Source: a virus (lineage: Duplodnaviria > Caudoviricetes). From it: DNA of 35,055 nt. A program made the position numbers and the translations under genes. Numbering within the stretch: position 1 is the first letter of the stretch; every line of letters begins with the position of its first letter. Shown piece by piece: positions 19,964 to 35,055 of this stretch. The stretch lies in IMG/VR virus record IMGVR_UViG_3300037458_000426, positions 1-35,055 of that record, one strand, 5' to 3'. The notes under the pieces are model-generated. The model worked only from the letters and a program-made list of their open reading frames with translations. It was not told the origin of the DNA and searched no databases.

Positions 19964-20233
19964 TCAGATCAGCCGGAATTCTGAACCGACCATCCTCAAA
20001 TCAGCGGGTCCTATTAGAGCGGCATGGCACACGGTAACGCGATACAGCGGGCCTTCGAGGTCCCGCTGCCAGAAGATCAGGAACTTGTTCAGCTCCGGAA
20101 AACCAGGAGCCAAGTCATAGTCCTGCCAGATGTACTCTTGGAGGATCGAGTGCGCGTCTGGGAGCCGATAAAGGATACTCGCTGTGGTCAGGCCGTAGCC
20201 ACGAACCTGAAGCAAGAAATCCCGGTCGGTCAT
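19964..20233 (-). CDS. usg: Usg-family protein
   Basis: GYGLTTA.I.YR.PD..S.LQ.Y.WQDYDLAP.FPEL..FL.FW...LEGPL..V.V.H..LI.P signature. Confidence 0.85.
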   Translation of the reverse strand: MTDRDFLLQVRGYGLTTASILYRLPDAHSILQEYIWQDYDLAPGFPELNKFLIFWQRDLEGPLYRVTVCHAALIGPADLRMVGSEFRLI

Positions 20234-20325
20234 GGGGCCGGGGGAGCTAGGTAGCGCTTACGAAAGCGCTGACGACGCGAAGCGTGGATCCAGTGCCATT
20301 GACGTAGTCTTCGGATGAGTTTCAT
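20230..20325 (-). CDS. Arg-rich peptide (31 aa) coupled to usg
   Basis: Not in track. GGAGG RBS; MKLIRRLRQWHWIHASRRQRFRKRYLAPPAP; ATGA overlap with the usg start. Confidence 0.6.
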   Translation of the reverse strand: MKLIRRLRQWHWIHASRRQRFRKRYLAPPAP

Positions 20326-20375
20326 GTAACCCTCCATGCCAACACCGTCGCCAGCTCGACGGCATAGGGATGGAG

Positions 20376-20395
20376 GCGGCGCCCGAAGGCGCCGC
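20376..20395 (-). terminator. UUCG-capped GC hairpin after 20403-20753
   Basis: GCGGCGCC-TTCG-GGCGCCGC on the minus strand with no U-tract, so more likely a stabilising or processing stem. Confidence 0.4.
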
Positions 20396-25514: not shown

Positions 25515-25781
25515 ATGCAATTTGACGAATACTACCTCGAAATCGGGGACTTTTTCGCCAAGTGGTTCCCGGACGGGATCACTCAGACGGCCGCCGAGGC
25601 CGCCGCAAGGGCTCTGGAGCGGGAATTGGAGCCCCTGAGGGTGAACTTTGAGGTCAAAGCCGGAGCCCCGACAGAATTTAGGATGGCCATCCATAAGGAT
25701 GATCAGCTGAAGCTGCTGACGTGGGTCCGGGAACAGAAGATGGCGGTCACAGAGCTACCAAAGGTACGGGGGTTCGCATGA
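25515..25781 (+). CDS. Hypothetical protein
   Basis: GAGGA RBS before ATG 25515. Confidence 0.65.
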   Translation: MQFDEYYLEIGDFFAKWFPDGITQTAAEAAARALERELEPLRVNFEVKAGAPTEFRMAIHKDDQLKLLTWVREQKMAVTELPKVRGFA

Positions 25782-26245
25782 GCGAGCGGTTCATGGCGAA
25801 GGTGTCGCCAGAGCCGATCTCCGGGTGCTGGCTTTGGACAGCGCACTGCAACCGGGGTGGATATGGCGTCCACTCTGTCGGGAAGAAGCTCATTCTTGCC
25901 CACAGGTTCTCCTGGGAGATGAGGCACGGCCCAATCGAGGAAGGAAAGTACGTGCTTCATTTCTGCGACCAACCTTCTTGCGTGAACCCGGACCATCTCT
26001 GGCTTGGCACTAAGGCTGAAAACAACCGAGACAGGGCCATAAAGGGCCGGTCTAGCCGCGGGGCGCACAGGAACACCTCAAAGCTCTCCGAGACCCAGGC
26101 GCTGGAGATCAGAAGGCGGGCTCTGGCTGGTGAAACATTGGCCAGTCTTGGGAGGGAGTTCGGGGTCACCTGGCAAACGGTTCAGGGCATCAGAAACGGC
26201 AAATACTGGCACTGGTTGCCAGACATTGAGAGGGGAGCAGCATGA
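25778..26245 (+). CDS. HNH endonuclease with C-terminal HTH
   Basis: CWLW...GYG...AHRFSW...GPI...VLHFCDQPSCVNPDHL.LGT..EN..D...KGR; SKL...L.REFGV...V..I..G..W; ATGA-coupled start. Confidence 0.9.
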   Translation: MSERFMAKVSPEPISGCWLWTAHCNRGGYGVHSVGKKLILAHRFSWEMRHGPIEEGKYVLHFCDQPSCVNPDHLWLGTKAENNRDRAIKGRSSRGAHRNTSKLSETQALEIRRRALAGETLASLGREFGVTWQTVQGIRNGKYWHWLPDIERGAA

Positions 26246-26658
26246 CACATCTGGTCCACGAACACTTCTTTGGCCGGTTTGAGGTCAAGAAGCCGCCAAA
26301 GCATCGCGACGGGTCGGCGCTGGCATTGTGGATTACGCGCCTGATCGACCACATTGGCATGGAGCGGCTGAACGGCCCGCACCTGTCCTACGTCTCAGAC
26401 CCTGGAAACGTGGGCTGGACGGCTGTCTGCATCATCAAGACCAGCCACATGGCGATCCACGTCTGGGAAGAAATCGGGGTTATTCAGGTCGATTGCTACT
26501 CATGCTCGACGCTGGACCCGGAGAGGGTCATTGAGATGATGGCTGAGTTCGAGCCCACAGAGTGGGAGTGGTACTTCTACGACCGGGACAAGCCTATGCG
26601 CCTGCTTAGGACAGGCGGTGGTGAAAAACCGGCCTCGGTAAAGTGGGGTGGTGCATGA
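26242..26658 (+). CDS. speD: S-adenosylmethionine decarboxylase-like pyruvoyl proenzyme
   Basis: G.TA...I.TSH.AIH.W.E...Q.D.YSC motif with processing Ser-His and conserved Cys. Confidence 0.82.
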   Translation: MTHLVHEHFFGRFEVKKPPKHRDGSALALWITRLIDHIGMERLNGPHLSYVSDPGNVGWTAVCIIKTSHMAIHVWEEIGVIQVDCYSCSTLDPERVIEMMAEFEPTEWEWYFYDRDKPMRLLRTGGGEKPASVKWGGA

Positions 26659-29381: not shown

Positions 29382-29606
29382 ATGGTTTGGATCATAGCCA
29401 AGGCAGACGAGGTTGGGTTTGTGTATGCCTTTAAGGGGGACCCAACCCCAAAAAAAGCCTACGCCCTATGGAAGAGCGGGGCCGCCTACTGCGGCCACCG
29501 CCTCCGCTTCATAAAACTGGTCAGAACTATGGAAGAGGCCTATGATTGGTGCGTTAAAAACAAAACCCACGTCTGCTTTGAAGACACATCAGGCTTCAAT
29601 GCATAA
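29382..29606 (+). CDS. Hypothetical protein
   Basis: Probable start ATG 29382; overlaps the start of the next gene. Confidence 0.5.
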   Translation: MVWIIAKADEVGFVYAFKGDPTPKKAYALWKSGAAYCGHRLRFIKLVRTMEEAYDWCVKNKTHVCFEDTSGFNA

Positions 29607-29928
29607 GCGCATTACATGGACAGAAGAGGCTGAAACCCTACTCGAAGCCCTCATACGCAGGGAAGGGGATGCCCCGTCACAGTCAGAAATGCTCAGAAGG
29701 CTCGTTTACCGGGCTTCAGACCTCCCAGACCCACCCAGACCCCTCCAGGGCAACCCAAAACTTCGTAAAAACAAGCCCGAAATCTCCCAACTAGGCCTCC
29801 GGGCGGGGACCCAGTCCATAATTTTAGGGATGGGGGTGTCAACCGTAGACCAACTCCGCCAGTTAGACCTAAAAACCCTGCCCAGTGCAGCACGCCGAGA
29901 GGTGGAGCGGGTTCTCTCCGAGCTCTAG
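29599..29928 (+). CDS. Putative DNA-binding regulator: RHH-like N-terminus plus alphaCTD-like C-terminus
   Basis: KRITWTEEA..LLE.L......SQSEMLRRLV (CopG/Arc pattern); Pro-rich linker; ISQLGL...MGVSTVDQL...EV..VL. Confidence 0.55.
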   Translation: MHKRITWTEEAETLLEALIRREGDAPSQSEMLRRLVYRASDLPDPPRPLQGNPKLRKNKPEISQLGLRAGTQSIILGMGVSTVDQLRQLDLKTLPSAARREVERVLSEL

Positions 29929-29948
29929 GGAGCCTCTCCGAGCTCTAG
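29914..29948 (+). repeat. 15-bp direct repeat with 20-bp period, decaying downstream
   Basis: CTCTCCGAGCTCTAG at 29914 and 29934; degenerate third unit follows. Confidence 0.85.
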
Positions 29949-29997
29949 CGAGGTTGTCGGAGCTGTAAGTAGGTTGCATGAGCATGTTATCTTAATA

Positions 29998-30451
29998 GAT
30001 CTCTGTTAGGTTGGTGGCTCTGATGGGGTTCACGCCCCATTTCCGTGAACGGATAATGCGTCATCATACAATCCGACATCAGATCGTCAGAACAAATCAT
30101 AAGTTATAAAGGTCAGAGCACTGATGATTGTCCATCAGTACACGTCACAATCCAGACAATGGACGATGATCAGTATAGATCAGATTGGTTCGGATCATCA
30201 GGGATCAGAGGATCAGAGATCATAACCAGGACGTGAACGGATCATCAGTGGGGTCCGGGTTTACACTGATAGTCGGCACACGGTAGAGCCGTGAGGGTAG
30301 ACAGATCATCAGATCACATCCGATCTGTAAGGATCAATCAATCATCAGTATAATGAACAGTGTACGGAGCAGATGATGGTCCTGGTACTGAACAGTACAC
30401 AGAGCAATGGATCGTCAGTGTAATGAACAGTGTAAGGATGACTGATCGATC
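29998..30451. repeat. GATC/ATCAG-rich non-coding repeat tract
   Basis: 16 GATC counted; GATC[AG]TCAG recurs five times; 28-bp direct repeat 30341-30368 / 30411-30438 (25/28 identical). Confidence 0.85.
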
Positions 30452-30549
30452 CGTGTACGTGGGAAGCCAACAGACAATCAGTAGACGGTGGTGCGGGGTG
30501 CCGCGCACATATAGAGAGAGGGTGCTAGGTACCGGGACGGCCCCGACGG

Positions 30550-30646
30550 GGTAACGCGATGGTAACAAATTATCACAAAGACGTGATGAGGCCAGGTAAC
30601 GCGGACATCACAGATTATCACAAAGACGTGATGAACCTGGTAACGC
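30550..30646 (+). repeat. ~45-bp tandem iteron-like repeat containing two ATCAC-N6-GTGAT palindromes
   Basis: ATTATCACAAAGACGTGATGA at 30569 and 30614; GGTAACGC at 30550, 30595 and 30639. Confidence 0.85.
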
Positions 30647-30808
30647 TTTCGTGATTGAGCGTGATCGTTTCGTGATTGGAAGTATGGCCATGGATGTGGG
30701 ATATTGAAATGGTCAGGCGGCGATGACGCCAAGCAACAAGCCTGACGGGGTGACAACCCGCACCGGACTGACTCAGCGTGTCATCCGATGTATGCAAACG
30801 GCTCCGGG

Positions 30809-30899
30809 ATCACAATGATGTGATCTAGACGGAGAGTACACGGGAAAGATAGCAAGGCTCCCATATCCGGCCTAAGACGGCCCATCACGGAAAGGTGAT
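30809..30899. promoter_or_regulatory. Two ATCAC-N6-GTGAT operator-like sites
   Basis: 30809-30824 ATCACAATGATGTGAT; 30884-30899 ATCACGGAAAGGTGAT. Confidence 0.65.
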
Positions 30900-30940
30900 G
30901 CAGCAAGGGAGGGACAAGAGCGCAGCGAGGCAATCCCGGA

Positions 30941-31029
30941 GCACATAGCGCGGTGAGGCTGACAACCATGGCCGCGCTAGTGGAGAGCCGCCCAGAAAGG
31001 ACGGCTCTCTATTAAAAGGATGTGCAAAC
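30941..31029 (+). promoter_or_regulatory. Structured leader (divergent two-hairpin element, copy E)
   Basis: TAGCGCGG/CCGCGCTA and GAGAGCCG/CGGCTCTC stems, closed by GCACAT/ATGTGC next to the AAGGA SD. Confidence 0.45.
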
Positions 31030-31326
31030 ATGAATGGAAAGCAACGCAAGGCCCGGTGCCTGGCAGAGATGGCAGACATTGAACGCCGTTTCACAGTGAC
31101 ACGGGAATTCCGGGACCATGCCAACCACTGGAGCGGACACGACGGCCGCACGCATAGAGAGGCGCGCGGTGAGGTGACGTTCAAGGGCGAGTGCCGGACA
31201 CGGGATCGCATGATTGCGGACCCGCACGGGAACGAGTTCCACGTCCGCAAGGGTGTGAGAGTAGAGAGACGGCCGACGCGGATCATACTCAAGCGTCCCG
31301 CGAGATGGTCTGTGAACGGGCTTTAA
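31030..31326 (+). CDS. Basic hypothetical protein
   Basis: AAGGA RBS; first gene after the non-coding repeat region. Confidence 0.6.
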   Translation: MNGKQRKARCLAEMADIERRFTVTREFRDHANHWSGHDGRTHREARGEVTFKGECRTRDRMIADPHGNEFHVRKGVRVERRPTRIILKRPARWSVNGL

Positions 31327-31574
31327 CGGCGCGGGGTAGAGGGTCGGCGAGCAACCGCCACCCAATCATTAATGAATTCAGCCGCACACGGACTAATTTT
31401 CCCGAGCGGCTGTTTCATTCCGCACACGTACTATTCCCCATTAGGTTCTATATAGGGACGCGGGCCTGTACGGGGTTCGCGAGATCACTGATGCAACCCA
31501 TAGCGCACTACGGCGCGCGCCTATTGACAGTATACGTTCTGTTAATGGCGCCCATCATACTATTCGCATAGCTG

Positions 31575-31649
31575 CACCGCTTGGCTGCCGGGTTCGCTCG
31601 GCAGCCATACCGTGCCGCTAGTGGCACGATGACAGGAAAGGTCATCACC
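31575..31649 (+). ncRNA. Structured cis-RNA leader, copy A
   Basis: P1 11 bp + UUCG loop, TAC linker, P2 CGTGCC/GGCACG, SD in the loop of a third stem. Confidence 0.7.
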
Positions 31650-31784
31650 ATGACAGTAGAGACTTGCACGGATTGCACGATCACCGTTCGGGAATTCCCG
31701 AATGAAAGCGCTGCACTGGCGTACGCCGTGGAACAATGGCGCGCGAACGGATGCGAGCGGTTCACAGTGTTCGTGGAGGACTAA
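31650..31784 (+). CDS. Hypothetical protein (44 aa)
   Basis: AGGAAAGG RBS before ATG 31650. Confidence 0.55.
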   Translation: MTVETCTDCTITVREFPNESAALAYAVEQWRANGCERFTVFVED

Positions 31785-31787
31785 CCC

Positions 31788-31943
31788 ATGCAGGTAGTTT
31801 ACCTTCACTTGCAGCTAGAAGGCGGGTTCGCCGATGACGGAGCAGCGCTCACGCTGCCAGCCGATCCCAGCGAAACGGATCAACTGCTACTGGACTTGCT
31901 AGGACCATATGACAGTGTGCTGATGGTTCCCGGCACGTTCTAA
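31788..31943 (+). CDS. Hypothetical acidic protein (51 aa)
   Basis: Not in track. GGAGGA RBS; MQVVYLHLQLEGGFADDGAALTLPADPSETDQLLLDLLGPYDSVLMVPGTF. Confidence 0.6.
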   Translation: MQVVYLHLQLEGGFADDGAALTLPADPSETDQLLLDLLGPYDSVLMVPGTF

Positions 31944-31976
31944 TTTTTCCCCGCTCTAGTTGTACGGGATACGCGA

Positions 31977-32050
31977 CACCGCTTGGCCGCTGGGGCAACT
32001 CAGCGGCCATACCGTGCAGCGTAGCACGATATCAACCGCAAGGTGTAAAC
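31977..32050 (+). ncRNA. Structured cis-RNA leader, copy B
   Basis: P1 11 bp + GCAA loop with two compensatory changes versus copy A, TAC linker, P2 CGTGC/GCACG. Confidence 0.7.
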
Positions 32051-32359
32051 ATGAATAAACGCAACCTGATGATGGTTGCGGCGGCAATGGCGTTCGCCAC
32101 ACCGCTGCAAGCCATGAACTACGAAGGCGCGCGCCTATCCGTCAACGTGGTTGACCTGCGCACACCGCAGAACGTCCCAGCATTCCCCGCTGACATAGTT
32201 GTATGTGAGGAGGGCGATGCACCGGGAGTGGATTGCAACTGCATCGACGGTGACGAGGACAGCTGCGCAACAGTTGCATGGACATCGTGCGACACAGACA
32301 CGGATTGCGAGATCCGTTCGCGTTCGCCGTACGGATGGCAGCCGTTCACGGAAAAGTGA
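32051..32359 (+). CDS. Secreted Cys-rich acidic protein
   Basis: Signal peptide MNKRNLMMVAAAMAFATPLQA; six Cys in an Asp-rich C-terminal half. Confidence 0.7.
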   Translation: MNKRNLMMVAAAMAFATPLQAMNYEGARLSVNVVDLRTPQNVPAFPADIVVCEEGDAPGVDCNCIDGDEDSCATVAWTSCDTDTDCEIRSRSPYGWQPFTEK

Positions 32360-32401
32360 TAGCGTTCACGGAACTGTGACCATAGATCACGAAAACGTGA
32401 T
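32345..32401. promoter_or_regulatory. Three tandem TCAC-N6-GTGA sites
   Basis: Half-sites at 32346, 32356, 32366, 32376, 32387, 32397 (10-11 bp phasing). Confidence 0.7.
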
Positions 32402-32463
32402 TTGAACTGTGGCCATAGTTATGACCATAATAGAGGTGCGATCAACAGAAAGGACCGCACATC

Positions 32464-32718
32464 ATGGTAGTAGGACACAGACATACAACATTAACAGACG
32501 TCGCAGTATTCCTAGCATTCGCTCCCATCTTCGCCGCAGTGTGGATATGGGACAAGGCAACAACCCGAAAGGCAAAGGCTCCAGAGCCGAAAGTGAAGCC
32601 CAAGGCGAAAAAGGCGAAAGCCAAACCAAGGGCGCCAAGAAAGCCCAAGGCACCGGAGCCTAAGCCAATGCCCGGGACAATCTGCGAAAAGTGCCAAGCT
32701 CATATGACAGTCCACTAA
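32464..32718 (+). CDS. Membrane-anchored K/P/A-rich protein
   Basis: AAAGGA RBS; one TM segment, KAKAPEPK-type repeats, CxxC end; followed by a terminator. Confidence 0.6.
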   Translation: MVVGHRHTTLTDVAVFLAFAPIFAAVWIWDKATTRKAKAPEPKVKPKAKKAKAKPRAPRKPKAPEPKPMPGTICEKCQAHMTVH

Positions 32719-32723
32719 CCAAG

Positions 32724-32754
32724 GCGGGGGCAGCGATGCCCCCGCTATTTTTTT
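32724..32754 (+). terminator. Rho-independent terminator
   Basis: GCGGGGGCA-GCGA-TGCCCCCGC followed by TATTTTTTT. Confidence 0.85.
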
Positions 32755-32951
32755 GTGCCCAATCCCAGACCATAGCAGGAGGTGACCCTCGGCCGGGTTT
32801 CGCTGCCTTTGCGCGCGCGCACGCGCGCGTGCGGGTGGCCGCACCTGGCCGCGTGTGCCTGGCCGCCGCGGCTCCAGTGCTGCCCTCGGCTGCCTTTCGC
32901 TGCCTTCTGATGCTCCCACGTTGCACCCCGTGTGCAGCGCGGCAGCCTCAG

Positions 32952-32967
32952 ATCACGCAATCGTGAA
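32952..32967. promoter_or_regulatory. TCAC-N6-GTGA site upstream of the 33025 gene
   Basis: ATCACGCAATCGTGAA, within a larger CCTCA...TGAGG inverted repeat. Confidence 0.55.
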
Positions 32968-33024
32968 TTGAGGACTGGCCAGTAATGGCGTATTTACAAA
33001 GCGTCTTCAGAAAAGGGAACGCTA

Positions 33025-33393
33025 ATGCCTTACATCTACAGCATGCAAGAGATGCCCGCGTCTCATCCGGCTATTCGCAAGCTTATCGCTGCGACTTTCC
33101 CGGATTATCGGCGCCGCAAGGTGATGATATGGGCCCGGAGCAATGTCACGCTTTCCGGGCTTAACTGGGACGGCGGCTCTCGCTCGGAATATGCGGGGTG
33201 TACGCTAGATGGGCAGCCGACAGGTAATGCCTCTCGCTTCCATCGCTTCCACCCTGCCGACAATCCGGGAGAGGGTAGAACTATCGCGGTGCCTACGGGT
33301 TGCGCGCTAGTGCAAGGCGGTACCTACTGCGGCCGTCCTGCTACCCTCTACATCTACGTCAACCCGGAAGACATGCCGCGCCTAATCTCTTGA
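33025..33393 (+). CDS. Conserved-type phage hypothetical protein
   Basis: FPDY..RK...WDGGSR..Y...G.YCG....L.IYV.P motif; AAGGGA RBS. Confidence 0.7.
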   Translation: MPYIYSMQEMPASHPAIRKLIAATFPDYRRRKVMIWARSNVTLSGLNWDGGSRSEYAGCTLDGQPTGNASRFHRFHPADNPGEGRTIAVPTGCALVQGGTYCGRPATLYIYVNPEDMPRLIS

Positions 33394-33440
33394 CATATCG
33401 CAAGCATGCCCGCGCCTACATGGCGCGGGCCTCTAGCGTA

Positions 33441-33501
33441 ACGGCTAGCTGCCGTCGGCGGCTATCCCCTGCGCTAGCAGGATAACAACGGAGTGAAATG
33501 C
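33441..33501 (+). ncRNA. Structured cis-RNA leader, copy C
   Basis: P1 TAGCTGCC/GGCGGCTA, TCC linker, P2 CCTGC-GCTA-GCAGG, then AT and a GGAG SD. Confidence 0.65.
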
Positions 33502-33801
33502 ATGAACAAGCTTCACTTTGACGGCGCCGACTTCGCCGTGTCTGCCTCGGAGCTATCAGACAACCTTCGCGCGGCGCTCATGGATTGCGGCGCGCCGGGA
33601 GATGCTCAAGAGGCGGTCGATTATGTCCGGGAAGCCTTCACCATCTCCGGCAACCCGGAAGCGTGCGCCGCATACCTGAAAGGTTATGGGGCGTGGGATG
33701 CCGAGGAATTGGCGGACCATGATCGCAACCTAGACCGCCTTGTCTGGCTGGCTGGCTGTGACCTTCGCGAGCAGGGTGAGATTTACTTCTGCACTTACTA
33801 A
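33502..33801 (+). CDS. Conserved-type phage hypothetical protein
   Basis: Start at ATG 33502; L..YGAWD.EEL.DH..NL.R..W.A motif. Confidence 0.7.
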   Translation: MNKLHFDGADFAVSASELSDNLRAALMDCGAPGDAQEAVDYVREAFTISGNPEACAAYLKGYGAWDAEELADHDRNLDRLVWLAGCDLREQGEIYFCTY

Positions 33802-33815
33802 CGAGCCTAGCTCAT

Positions 33816-33878
33816 TGGGCGCCCTCGCGGCGCCCTTTGACCTGCGCTTGCAGGGTAGCAAAAGAGAAAGGTGCTGCA
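33816..33878 (+). ncRNA. Structured cis-RNA leader, copy D
   Basis: P1 GGGCGCC/GGCGCCC, P2 CCTGC-GCTT-GCAGG, SD in the loop of a GTAGCA/TGCTGC stem. Confidence 0.6.
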
Positions 33879-34157
33879 ATGTCTTATAACGGTTGGACGA
33901 ATTGGGCCACATGGCAGATTAACCTGTGGCTCGATAGTGAGGAGCCGCTCTATCGGGAAAAGCAACGCTATCTGCGGCGGGCCTCGGATGAGATTGACGC
34001 TAAGGAGGCAGAGGCTTGGTGCCGAGCCGCCTTTATGTGTCACTTTGATCGGCCCTTCACTCCCGATATGACGCGAGCCGATCTCATGGCAGTGAATTGG
34101 CAAGAGATTGCCGATCATCTCAACGAGGAGGCGGCCGAATATGCTGATCCTCGCTGA
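33879..34157 (+). CDS. Early phage protein of the YNGW.N..TW family
   Basis: MSYNGWTNWATW.INLWL.....Y...VNW.EIA; GAAAGG RBS. Confidence 0.75.
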   Translation: MSYNGWTNWATWQINLWLDSEEPLYREKQRYLRRASDEIDAKEAEAWCRAAFMCHFDRPFTPDMTRADLMAVNWQEIADHLNEEAAEYADPR

Positions 34158-34347
34158 AAGCAAAACCTTACGGGACCGCGTCCAGCAAGTGGATAAGGCC
34201 CTCGACGGTCTAAGTGCAGCTGAGGCGGGCCAAGTGCTCGCCTCGGCGCTCCTCGTCGCCTTTTCGTTTCAAGATGAGGAACGGGGTCACGCTTACTGGT
34301 GTGATGTTTTCTGCGCTCTCATGGATGTGAGGGTGCGGGATGAATAG
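34141..34347 (+). CDS. Hypothetical protein
   Basis: GAGGAGG RBS before ATG 34141; F.....E.GH.YW motif. Confidence 0.6.
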   Translation: MLILAESKTLRDRVQQVDKALDGLSAAEAGQVLASALLVAFSFQDEERGHAYWCDVFCALMDVRVRDE

Positions 34348-34543
34348 GACAATCATAATCGACGGCGAAGAGCGCCGCTTTCGGGACATCGGCGAACGAT
34401 GGCCCGGCTGGACAGCCTTGCTGATCTACGACGCGACGGGACGCCCAACCTCGGAACACAAGCTGCCGCATTGGTTCATGCGCACGGGTGGCACCATCGT
34501 AACAGGCGGACACACCTACACGCTTAGGAGGCGATATGACTGA
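34340..34543 (+). CDS. Hypothetical protein
   Basis: GAGGG RBS; overlapping tiling with neighbours. Confidence 0.6.
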   Translation: MNRTIIIDGEERRFRDIGERWPGWTALLIYDATGRPTSEHKLPHWFMRTGGTIVTGGHTYTLRRRYD

Positions 34544-34829
34544 CTACGTACATGAACACCTCGCGACCGCGCCCATGCGGGAAGGCATGCCAGTGCGAGG
34601 GGGGCTTGTCCTCCCGGGCGGAGGCCTCCTCAGCATTCAAGCGTCGCATTTTCACTATTGCTCGCCTCGCGACGATGCCGGGCCTTACACCTCAGTTGAG
34701 GTGATGGCCATCGATTGCGACGACATTCCAGAGGAGTGGAGCGAGTACGATGACGGAGGCGTTTATGGCTGGATACCTGTGGCCCTCGTCAACGCCTACA
34801 TCGCTTCGCGCATGGTGCGCCATGACTGA
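34536..34829 (+). CDS. Conserved-type phage hypothetical protein
   Basis: AGGAGG RBS; LSIQAS..HYCSPR....Y.SVEV...VYGW.P motif. Confidence 0.7.
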   Translation: MTDYVHEHLATAPMREGMPVRGGLVLPGGGLLSIQASHFHYCSPRDDAGPYTSVEVMAIDCDDIPEEWSEYDDGGVYGWIPVALVNAYIASRMVRHD

Positions 34830-34935
34830 GGCCCTCATCCTCGAATGGATTGGCCGCCTCACGGTCGCCTCGTGGCTGATCTTGTGCGGCTGGCTTCTGA
34901 CCTGCCTTGTAGATGGAGAAGACTATGAAGATTGA
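34822..34935 (+). CDS. Small membrane protein (37 aa)
   Basis: ATG 34822; one TM segment; overlapping tiling. Confidence 0.5.
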   Translation: MTEALILEWIGRLTVASWLILCGWLLTCLVDGEDYED

Positions 34936-35055
34936 CGATACGATACTGTTAGACCTCCGCCACCTTGGACGGGATTTGTCCGAGGCCGCGATCCTCGCCT
35001 TCTATCAGACTGACACAACGCACCATGACGAGCGTGTGCGAAAGCTGATGGCAGA
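34925..35055 (+). CDS. Hypothetical protein, partial
   Basis: GGAG RBS; MKIDDTILLDLRHLG... open to the window end. Confidence 0.55.
   Translation, partial: MKIDDTILLDLRHLGRDLSEAAILAFYQTDTTHHDERVRKLMA

Follow-up and report, generated by a model that had tools for sequence, protein, structure and literature searches.

Repeated two-state RNA hairpins ahead of early phage genes as candidate host RNase III processing sites

The virus record IMGVR_UViG_3300037458_000426 (Duplodnaviria; Caudoviricetes) was analysed as a single window of 35,055 nucleotides (nt), estimated by CheckV to be 29% complete. Its minus strand encodes head, portal, terminase and baseplate genes, and its plus strand carries, from about position 31030 onward, small uncharacterised open reading frames (ORFs) that almost throughout belong to no family and that we regard as early genes based on their size, strand and position. 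Spaced along this region is a repeated RNA element that forms a long irregular hairpin with an apical stem (P1), and whose 3′ side can alternatively fold into a second hairpin (P2). We refer to its five plus-strand copies as A–E; one late copy lies on the minus strand (Table 1). The closest cultured phage is Bradyrhizobium phage BDU-MI-1 (121 kb; capsid 54%, 756-amino acid (aa) structural protein 51%). Since the window also contains a gene of the Usg family, whose host range points to alphaproteobacteria, an alphaproteobacterial host is likely for this phage, a myovirus. Relatives by terminase are G001/L004 (88%; 80.6 kb), L003 (89%; 8.3 kb) and L005 (64%). An RNase III gene is absent from the window, G001 and BDU-MI-1, which implies that any such activity would come from the host enzyme.

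A preliminary description of the locus had reported four intergenic elements, A–D, composed of P1, a short linker and P2 followed by a Shine–Dalgarno sequence (SD) and an ATG. All four are present, every coordinate and arm agrees with the sequence, and the distances from P2 to the ATG (21, 22, 20 and 24 nt in A, B, C and D) were borne out; the fifth early copy, E, which follows a terminator and lies 82 nt ahead of an ATG, had been overlooked. Copies A–D sit on the coding strand between a stop codon and the SD-ATG, 34–39 nt from the ATG, and A and B are 80% alike over 44 nt. G001 contains two clear early copies, G1 and G2 (L084 18175–18197 and 17280–17300, minus strand), plus a weak third (G0) and a late copy. 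E, G1 and G2 are sequence homologues (mean column identity 78%) that precede different genes in the two phages. The late copy is kept in L003, where a descriptor scan found it, and in G001, with a compensatory change in the lower stem (one, window versus L003). The base of the lower stem adjoins or contains the upstream stop codon in D, G1 and G2 (in D, the codon ends at 33801, directly abutting the first stem position), and in A a possible 26-aa ORF terminates at the same place. The stop codon precedes the stem by 27 nt in B and by 39 nt in C. On the plus strand from 30700 to 35055 the descriptor retrieved five copies, against a mean of 0.02 (maximum 1) in 300 shuffles, a comparison that is partly circular as the descriptor was written after A–D and two G001 copies were known. 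A stricter descriptor gave two more window matches inside genes, taken as chance, and a relaxed one gave 23 matches in 2.0 Mb of other loci, one of which is the L003 late copy.

Table 1. Hairpin copies and associated features of the window. Cut positions are predictions.
Feature	Position	Strand	Long hairpin	P1	C·C mismatch	Alternative P2	Predicted 3′-strand cut, before	Possible 5′-strand cut, after	Context
Copy A	31569–31628	+	31569–31620	31582–31607	31578/31611	31611–31628	31611	31580	Ahead of 44-aa ORF at 31650
Copy B	31970–32028	+	31970–32023	31984–32009	31980/32013	32013–32028	32013	31982	Ahead of 102-aa ORF at 32051
Copy C	33433–33481	+		33446–33464		33468–33481	33468	33444	
Copy D	33802–33854	+	33802–33850	33817–33835	33811/33841	33841–33854	33841	33813	
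Copy E	32906–32977	+	32906–32952	32919–32939	32915/32943	32943–32977	32943	32917	
Late-strand copy	20331–20376	−							Same mismatch core, without strong P2; SD of 31-aa ORF (20230–20325, then Usg-family gene) in lower stem
Two small ORFs, 44 and 51 aa, between A and B	31650–31943	+							One RNA contig bounded by A and B in 4/7 runs (X4–X7), other three runs hold parts
Intrinsic terminator-like hairpin	32723–32756	+							Closes first early operon; control for contig ends

The intact RNA does not favour a linear succession of P1, linker and P2. With their upstream flank, A–D each give one long hairpin of about 22 irregular base pairs (bp), consisting of P1, a 1x1 or 2x2 mismatch, one to three pairs, a C·C mismatch and seven to eight more pairs in one or two helices. 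The upstream flank pairs with the linker, the 5′ arm of P2 and the P2 loop, and P2 and the lower stem therefore cannot coexist, since the 3′ strand of the lower stem is the 5′ arm and loop of P2. The long fold is favoured over the fold with a blocked upstream arm by 7.5, 5.7, 7.8 and 2.5 kcal/mol in A, B, C and D, with lower-stem pairing probabilities of 1.0, 0.92, 0.96 and 0.89 and long-hairpin z-scores of −5.4, −5.6, −3.9 and −4.6, respectively. With fold energies of −37.6 (A), −35.6 (B) and −31.7 kcal/mol (C), these hairpins rank near the top of the region's local folds in stability. The C·C mismatch lies 12–15 nt from the apical loop with 9–10 columns beneath it, about two helical turns overall, and P2 starts at its 3′ C in all five early copies. 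RNA starting at that C folds a hairpin from nt 1 or 2 in each of the five, and a strict test for five contiguous pairs from that C is passed by four of them (E fails through a bulge) versus 11% of positions, an agreement that is not fully independent because A–D were chosen partly for P2. The SD of A–D lies outside both folds. The UUCG loop of A, previously taken for a stable tetraloop, is closed by a G-C pair and not by the C-G pair of the extra-stable UUCG form.

Selection on RNA structure, as originally suggested, is supported by covariation in both A/B and E/G1/G2. P1 of A and B differs by two compensatory pairs and retains one G-U pair, as had been claimed; overall, 4 of 20 pairs are changed on both sides between these copies, two of these being lower-stem pairs, a level reached in 32 of 500 shuffles. 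The E/G1/G2 alignment has 98% of cells paired, and 4 of its 17 pairs are changed on both sides, again including two in the lower stem, a level reached in 1 of 500 shuffles. In P2, A/B and C/D differ by one compensatory change, and E solves the pairing differently. MAFFT failed to align all seven early copies of the two phages by structure, and registers were therefore set on the C·C in scripts. With the lower stems anchored in this way, cognate arms formed 7.7 of 9 pairs compared with 3.5 for swapped arms, the best of 5040 permutations. The lower stem covaries, supporting the long fold. Taken together, sequence, folding and covariation show that two-state hairpins recur ahead of ribosome-binding sites in a constant register; these hairpins are present in RNA libraries.

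The long hairpin resembles a T7-type RNase III site in being intergenic within the early block (A–D; E follows a terminator), in keeping its structure by compensatory change and in the spacing of the C·C from the loop and the stem base, RNase III sites being duplexes of ~22 bp with ~11 bp on either side (PMC3867540). Escherichia coli RNase III favours G-C/C-G at two central positions and A-U/U-A at D/D′, and a table of 85 E. coli stems has 18 mismatches at B and 14 at B′ versus 3 at D and D′ (PMC6212723). We compared eight copies (A–E, G1, G2 and the late copy), leaving out the weak G0 and the near-duplicate L003 and G001 late copies. Three features each hold for seven of the eight: a G-C/C-G pair above the C·C, a mismatch in the third column above it, mirrored across the core, and A-U/U-A as the second pair below it. 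Registers were scored with the position table of the 85 E. coli double-cut stems (Table S4 of PMC6212723; 24 positions, the paper's pseudocount). The eight-copy sum peaks at the register in which the 3′ product starts at the C (−230.5; runner-up −246.6), with p ~0.005 by column shuffle and p 0.025 by pair rethreading. At this register the eight copies score −23.2 to −27.6, compared with best scores of −28.1 to −37.8 for six other regional hairpins. Most of the register signal comes from the mismatch pattern: randomising the pairs while holding the mismatches fixed left the same register on top in 96% of trials.

Based on these features, we consider it probable that the hairpins undergo RNase III-type processing, and we propose, with moderate and slightly lower confidence, that they are host RNase III processing sites with a built-in refold shielding the new 5′ end. 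The intact RNA would take the long form, P1 plus a lower stem of two short helices, and the two columns above the C·C would occupy the two central positions of the bound RNase III. The enzyme would cut the 3′ strand directly before the C and possibly the 5′ strand too (Table 1). P2 could form only once the upstream arm is released, and a cut of the 5′ strand only, or of both strands, would likewise free it. P1 would then guard the 3′ end of the upstream piece, as after single cuts in known substrates, and P2, flush with the new 5′ end, would guard the downstream message. With the ribosome-binding sites of A–D outside both folds, switching would act on stability and not on initiation, whereas cutting the late copy would expose an SD that is otherwise buried. 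T7 offers a precedent for such processing, and single cuts that leave 3′ hairpins are known (PMC3867540, PMC6121014); 5′ hairpins are reported to protect RNA (PMC3997798, PMC5371410). The T7-like processing or stabilisation cassette listed among the candidate roles in the preliminary description is thus the best-supported role, although it would work through the long hairpin missed there, and P2 is not the neighbour of P1 in the intact RNA. More tentatively, the element may be a self-capping RNA module: a single RNase III cut by the host would switch the bistable hairpin and leave each product protected from the outset, the upstream one by P1 at its 3′ end and the downstream one by P2 flush with its 5′ end. 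Cutting would in this case be gated by ribosomes that terminate at the base of the stem, which would link processing of each early message to translation of the upstream gene.

Public sequencing runs offer a view of these RNAs. Twenty runs hold part of the stretch, 15 of them RNA, and seven of the 15 RNA runs and one DNA run were examined, all as contigs; depth differences between contigs were not used for ranking segments. RNA contigs cover 30690 onward, and none falls in 29600–30650 (the whole stretch in three runs, 30500–30651 in four). The DNA run spans all five copies. Among the contigs listed for the seven RNA runs, none crosses A or B, and many weaker hairpins are crossed. Upstream of B, contigs end at 31977 in five of the seven runs and at 31975 and 31960 in one each; upstream of A, they end at 31575, 31575, 31578 and 31492. 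Contigs start downstream of A at 31624–31669 in all seven runs and downstream of B once, at 32027. The ends lie 4–9 nt ahead of P1 in most runs. We take the gaps at A and B as a weak hint of processing. Six of the seven ends at B lie inside the 5′ arm of the lower stem, 7–9 nt before P1 and not before the stem base, as if this arm were free, a weak hint leaning to processing, which fragmentation before priming could likewise produce.

Several results weigh against the cut-and-refold proposal, beginning with the folds themselves. The two folds of copy E tie in energy and the top of its P2 is a DNA palindrome, the lower-stem probability of G2 in context is 0.31, and P2 is weak in the G001 copies and absent from the late copies. 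What the copies have in common is the long hairpin; P2 reaches its fullest form in this phage. The p-values are optimistic because the copies are related. The loop handling in our register scoring departs from that of PMC6212723, and the matrix peak has p 0.07 when pairs and mismatches are both randomised. Individually, only C among the early copies is best at the proposed register with the paper's pseudocount (three of five with a larger one), and 6 of 11 copies overall (7 of 11 with the larger). C alone among the five early copies passes the high threshold of −25.5; −33.8 is passed by 10 of 11 copies. A score over the central 12 positions prefers a register inside P1 (−96.2 versus −100.6), which sits nearer the loop than the ~11 bp that the enzyme requires (PMC3867540). 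The two-fold symmetry of the column profile has p 0.08, the loop-side D position is G-C/C-G in five of the eight copies, which is disruptive according to the E. coli study (PMC6212723), and Sinorhizobium meliloti RNase III likely favours other motifs (PMC6121014). BDU-MI-1 has no convincing copy in its 121 kb.

Caveats also attach to the RNA contigs. They carry neither strand nor true end, and the RNA runs may belong to one sampling campaign. Contigs also end 6–19 nt before the terminator hairpin at 32723 (32704, 32713 and 32717), 6 nt before a hairpin at 33409 and before a hairpin near 30975; because they stop before these other strong hairpins too, library drop-out can explain the ends. One contig has a loose end corresponding to the U-tract that follows the terminator hairpin, as would be expected had the hairpin been skipped. 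Depth at C, D and E is too low to judge, and uncovered stretches there are no evidence.

The same structure could act as a two-state switch without cleavage, which we consider unlikely. The lower stem would be opened by a ribosome finishing the preceding gene or, as in the protein operator among the candidate roles of the preliminary description, by a phage RNA-binding protein that reads the C·C core; P2 would then form and tune the stability or expression of the next gene. The stop codons at or in the stem base of D, G1 and G2 and the possible ORF end in A fit such a switch, as do energy gaps of 0.3–7.8 kcal/mol, which are switchable, and a mismatch core that is conserved while the stems vary. 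However, the stop codons of B and C lie well upstream of the stem (27 and 39 nt), the SD position in A–D would leave the switch without direct output on initiation, and the two-turn length and the matrix peak at the first base of P2 would go unexplained. We also doubt, somewhat more strongly, that the hairpins are passive barriers, uncut by RNase III. Such barriers would block 3′ exonucleases or steer a nearby single-strand nuclease, RNase E or another, and stable segments would build up between them. The high rank of the hairpins in local fold stability agrees with this reading, and the RNA contig pattern fits stable segments equally well, but barriers would need neither a conserved C·C, nor a weaker lower stem, nor a P2 in fixed register.

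Two further roles, both raised in the preliminary description, are highly improbable. A put-like RNA antiterminator, modelled on HK022 and binding RNA polymerase through two adjacent stems, draws on the proximity of P1 and P2 in sequence and their early-operon location. Antitermination by put works through the beta-prime zinc-binding domain. HK022 carries put twice, as ~70-nt elements that each follow an early promoter and whose two stems coexist and act on polymerase near promoters (PMC9378689). The present elements share the two close stems and the phage early region, but the lower stem, whose arms are made first, is predicted to exclude P2 (by 2.5–7.8 kcal/mol in A–D), and the copies punctuate the operon, all five intergenic and none at a consensus promoter. 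This reading therefore fails, as neither coexisting stems nor placement at one per early promoter was found; contigs of three RNA runs stop before the terminator downstream of A and B, a weak point in the same direction. PeSL-like mobile cassettes for gene shuffling are equally hard to credit. T4-type PeSLs, defined by a promoter and a terminator stem-loop (PMC2839356), are likewise repeated intergenic stem-loops before small uncharacterised early genes in a variable region, and the placement of the homologues E, G1 and G2 before different genes, together with the similarity of A and B, is in keeping with mobility. The defining sigma-70 promoter is, however, missing at the copies: no sigma-70 consensus promoter occurs at any of them and none of six promoter-like sites in 29500–35055 overlaps one, in a scan whose reach does not include alphaproteobacterial or phage promoters. 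A–E also received no terminator call, as they have no U-tract, and the fold here is two-state. A PeSL-type side role in recombination is compatible with the cut-and-refold account. A DNA-level hairpin or cruciform signal for injection, packaging or replication is very unlikely as well: although fold energy is not biased to the coding strand (A −34.2 versus −34.4; G1 −24.4 versus −29.4 kcal/mol), all early copies are on the coding strand, between stop codon and ribosome-binding site in A–D, A and B retain the G-U pair, RNA libraries contain the region, and DNA parameters give far weaker folds (−12 to −19 kcal/mol).

For the preferred reading, host RNase III processing with a refold, the nearest known systems are the early sites of T7, which bear names such as R0.3, R0.5, R1 and R1.3. 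Like these, the present hairpins are intergenic repeats of an early operon, about two turns long, with irregular pairing at the presumed cut, for which a host enzyme is implied, and after a single 3′ cut the upstream piece would end in a hairpin. R1.1, the RNase III signal between T7 genes 1.0 and 1.1 (PMC6121014), has an asymmetric 4/5 loop, whereas here symmetric 1x1 and 2x2 mismatches accompany the C·C, an alternative hairpin, P2, starts at the predicted cut, and the phage is a myovirus with a probable alphaproteobacterial host. For E. coli yajQ, pflB and ahpC, it has likewise been proposed that cleavage leaves the product with a protective hairpin at one end, 5′ or 3′, but these are single host sites, and the cited passages describe no repeated module with a protective hairpin exclusive of the substrate stem (PMC5371410). 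Mapping work in Bacillus subtilis (bioRxiv 2023.03.12.532304) contributed nothing specific to the comparison. RNase III punctuation of the T7 early message is well studied. The hairpins do not represent a new class of system. If the proposal is right, it would supply single-nucleotide cut predictions for an alphaproteobacterial RNase III with preferences apparently unlike those of E. coli, and refolding would instantly hide a monophosphorylated 5′ end that otherwise invites decay; such a ~60-nt cut-and-protect part could be useful for balancing synthetic operons. In the open-access literature, where older phage papers are thinly covered, we found no description of such sites in alphaproteobacterial phage early regions or of refolding after cleavage.

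The element's absence from Rfam, as anticipated, was confirmed, with no match in the window at the gathering score (Rfam 15); a relaxed search (E<=5) over 30500–35055 gave one match (E 2.1), off all copies. A blastn search of the region against 50,697 phage records gave no match, and copies A and E alone gave only short chance matches. In IMG/VR, the ORF at 33025 had no relative, the ORF at 33502 had 17 loci, none with a convincing copy, the A/B pattern had four loci, none with a long hairpin, and the G1/G2 pattern was found in G001 only. The family of the protein encoded at 32051 is represented in IMG/VR by G001 only, with one weak 1.5-kb metagenome contig, and the terminase gave four distant loci in GTDB genomes. 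A model of E, G1 and G2 (R1) recovered its own three members and their reverse strands, and not A–D. Searching with the lower-stem pattern gave 74 loci, which we rejected as further examples: two are G001, the other 72 are without a strong P1, and their model scores of 13–23 bits stem from the pattern itself.

Two segments upstream of the copies were also seen in the RNA contigs. A 13-bp hairpin with a bulged top and without the C·C core (30972–31014, plus strand) lies just ahead of the first early ORF, and contigs of six runs stop upstream of it, at 30939–30957; it is possibly another processing site or a terminator. The ORF-poor segment 30691–30957 (plus strand) is covered in six of the seven RNA runs, mostly from 30721–30731, with a promoter-like site near 30676–30705 identified by eye upstream, and is a candidate leader or small RNA of ~250 nt. 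The low-complexity stretch 29930–30650, ORF-free, rich in GATC/TGAT and with short direct repeats, is empty in RNA runs where examined and may possibly be a genome end, packaging or origin region.

The early region contains other repeated motifs. The palindrome TCAC-N6-GTGA occurs eight times in the window, always within 30573–32966 (0.57 expected), and five times in the matching G001 region (L084–L085); one of these palindromes forms the top of P2 in copy E. They are likely operators of a phage repressor. An integrase-like ORF is present in G001 (by eye), and BDU-MI-1 has an annotated integrase. CTCGC, which also makes up the apical loop of D, G1 and G2, is over-represented on the coding strand where the early region begins, with 9 occurrences versus 4 for the complement in the window (32760–35055), 31 versus 3 in L084 (16800–19400, minus) and 15 versus 6 in L097 (22500–25300), and is possibly a protein-binding or DNA-transfer signal. 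BDU-MI-1 has repeats of its own (L097 22578–25209 and 20028–37647), namely a 22-nt motif holding CTCGC just before start codons (4–5 copies) and a 19–21-nt motif upstream of genes (seven).

A GC-rich inverted repeat (32791–32870, −44.5 kcal/mol) lies between the terminator and E, and G001 has a similar block of CG runs between its terminator and second early block. Non-coding positions 31328–31392, which contain a hairpin, are 75% identical in G001, with different flanking genes. Three tRNA-like genes with odd anticodon loops lie among the early genes of G001 (L084 16366–16881, minus; ARAGORN '???', two by default and three relaxed; one Rfam tRNA match of 39.6 bits) and might be decoys, frameshift-type tRNAs or processing signals. 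Elsewhere in the window, an S-adenosylmethionine decarboxylase-like gene (26242–26658, plus strand) adjoins an HNH endonuclease gene (25721–26245, plus strand).

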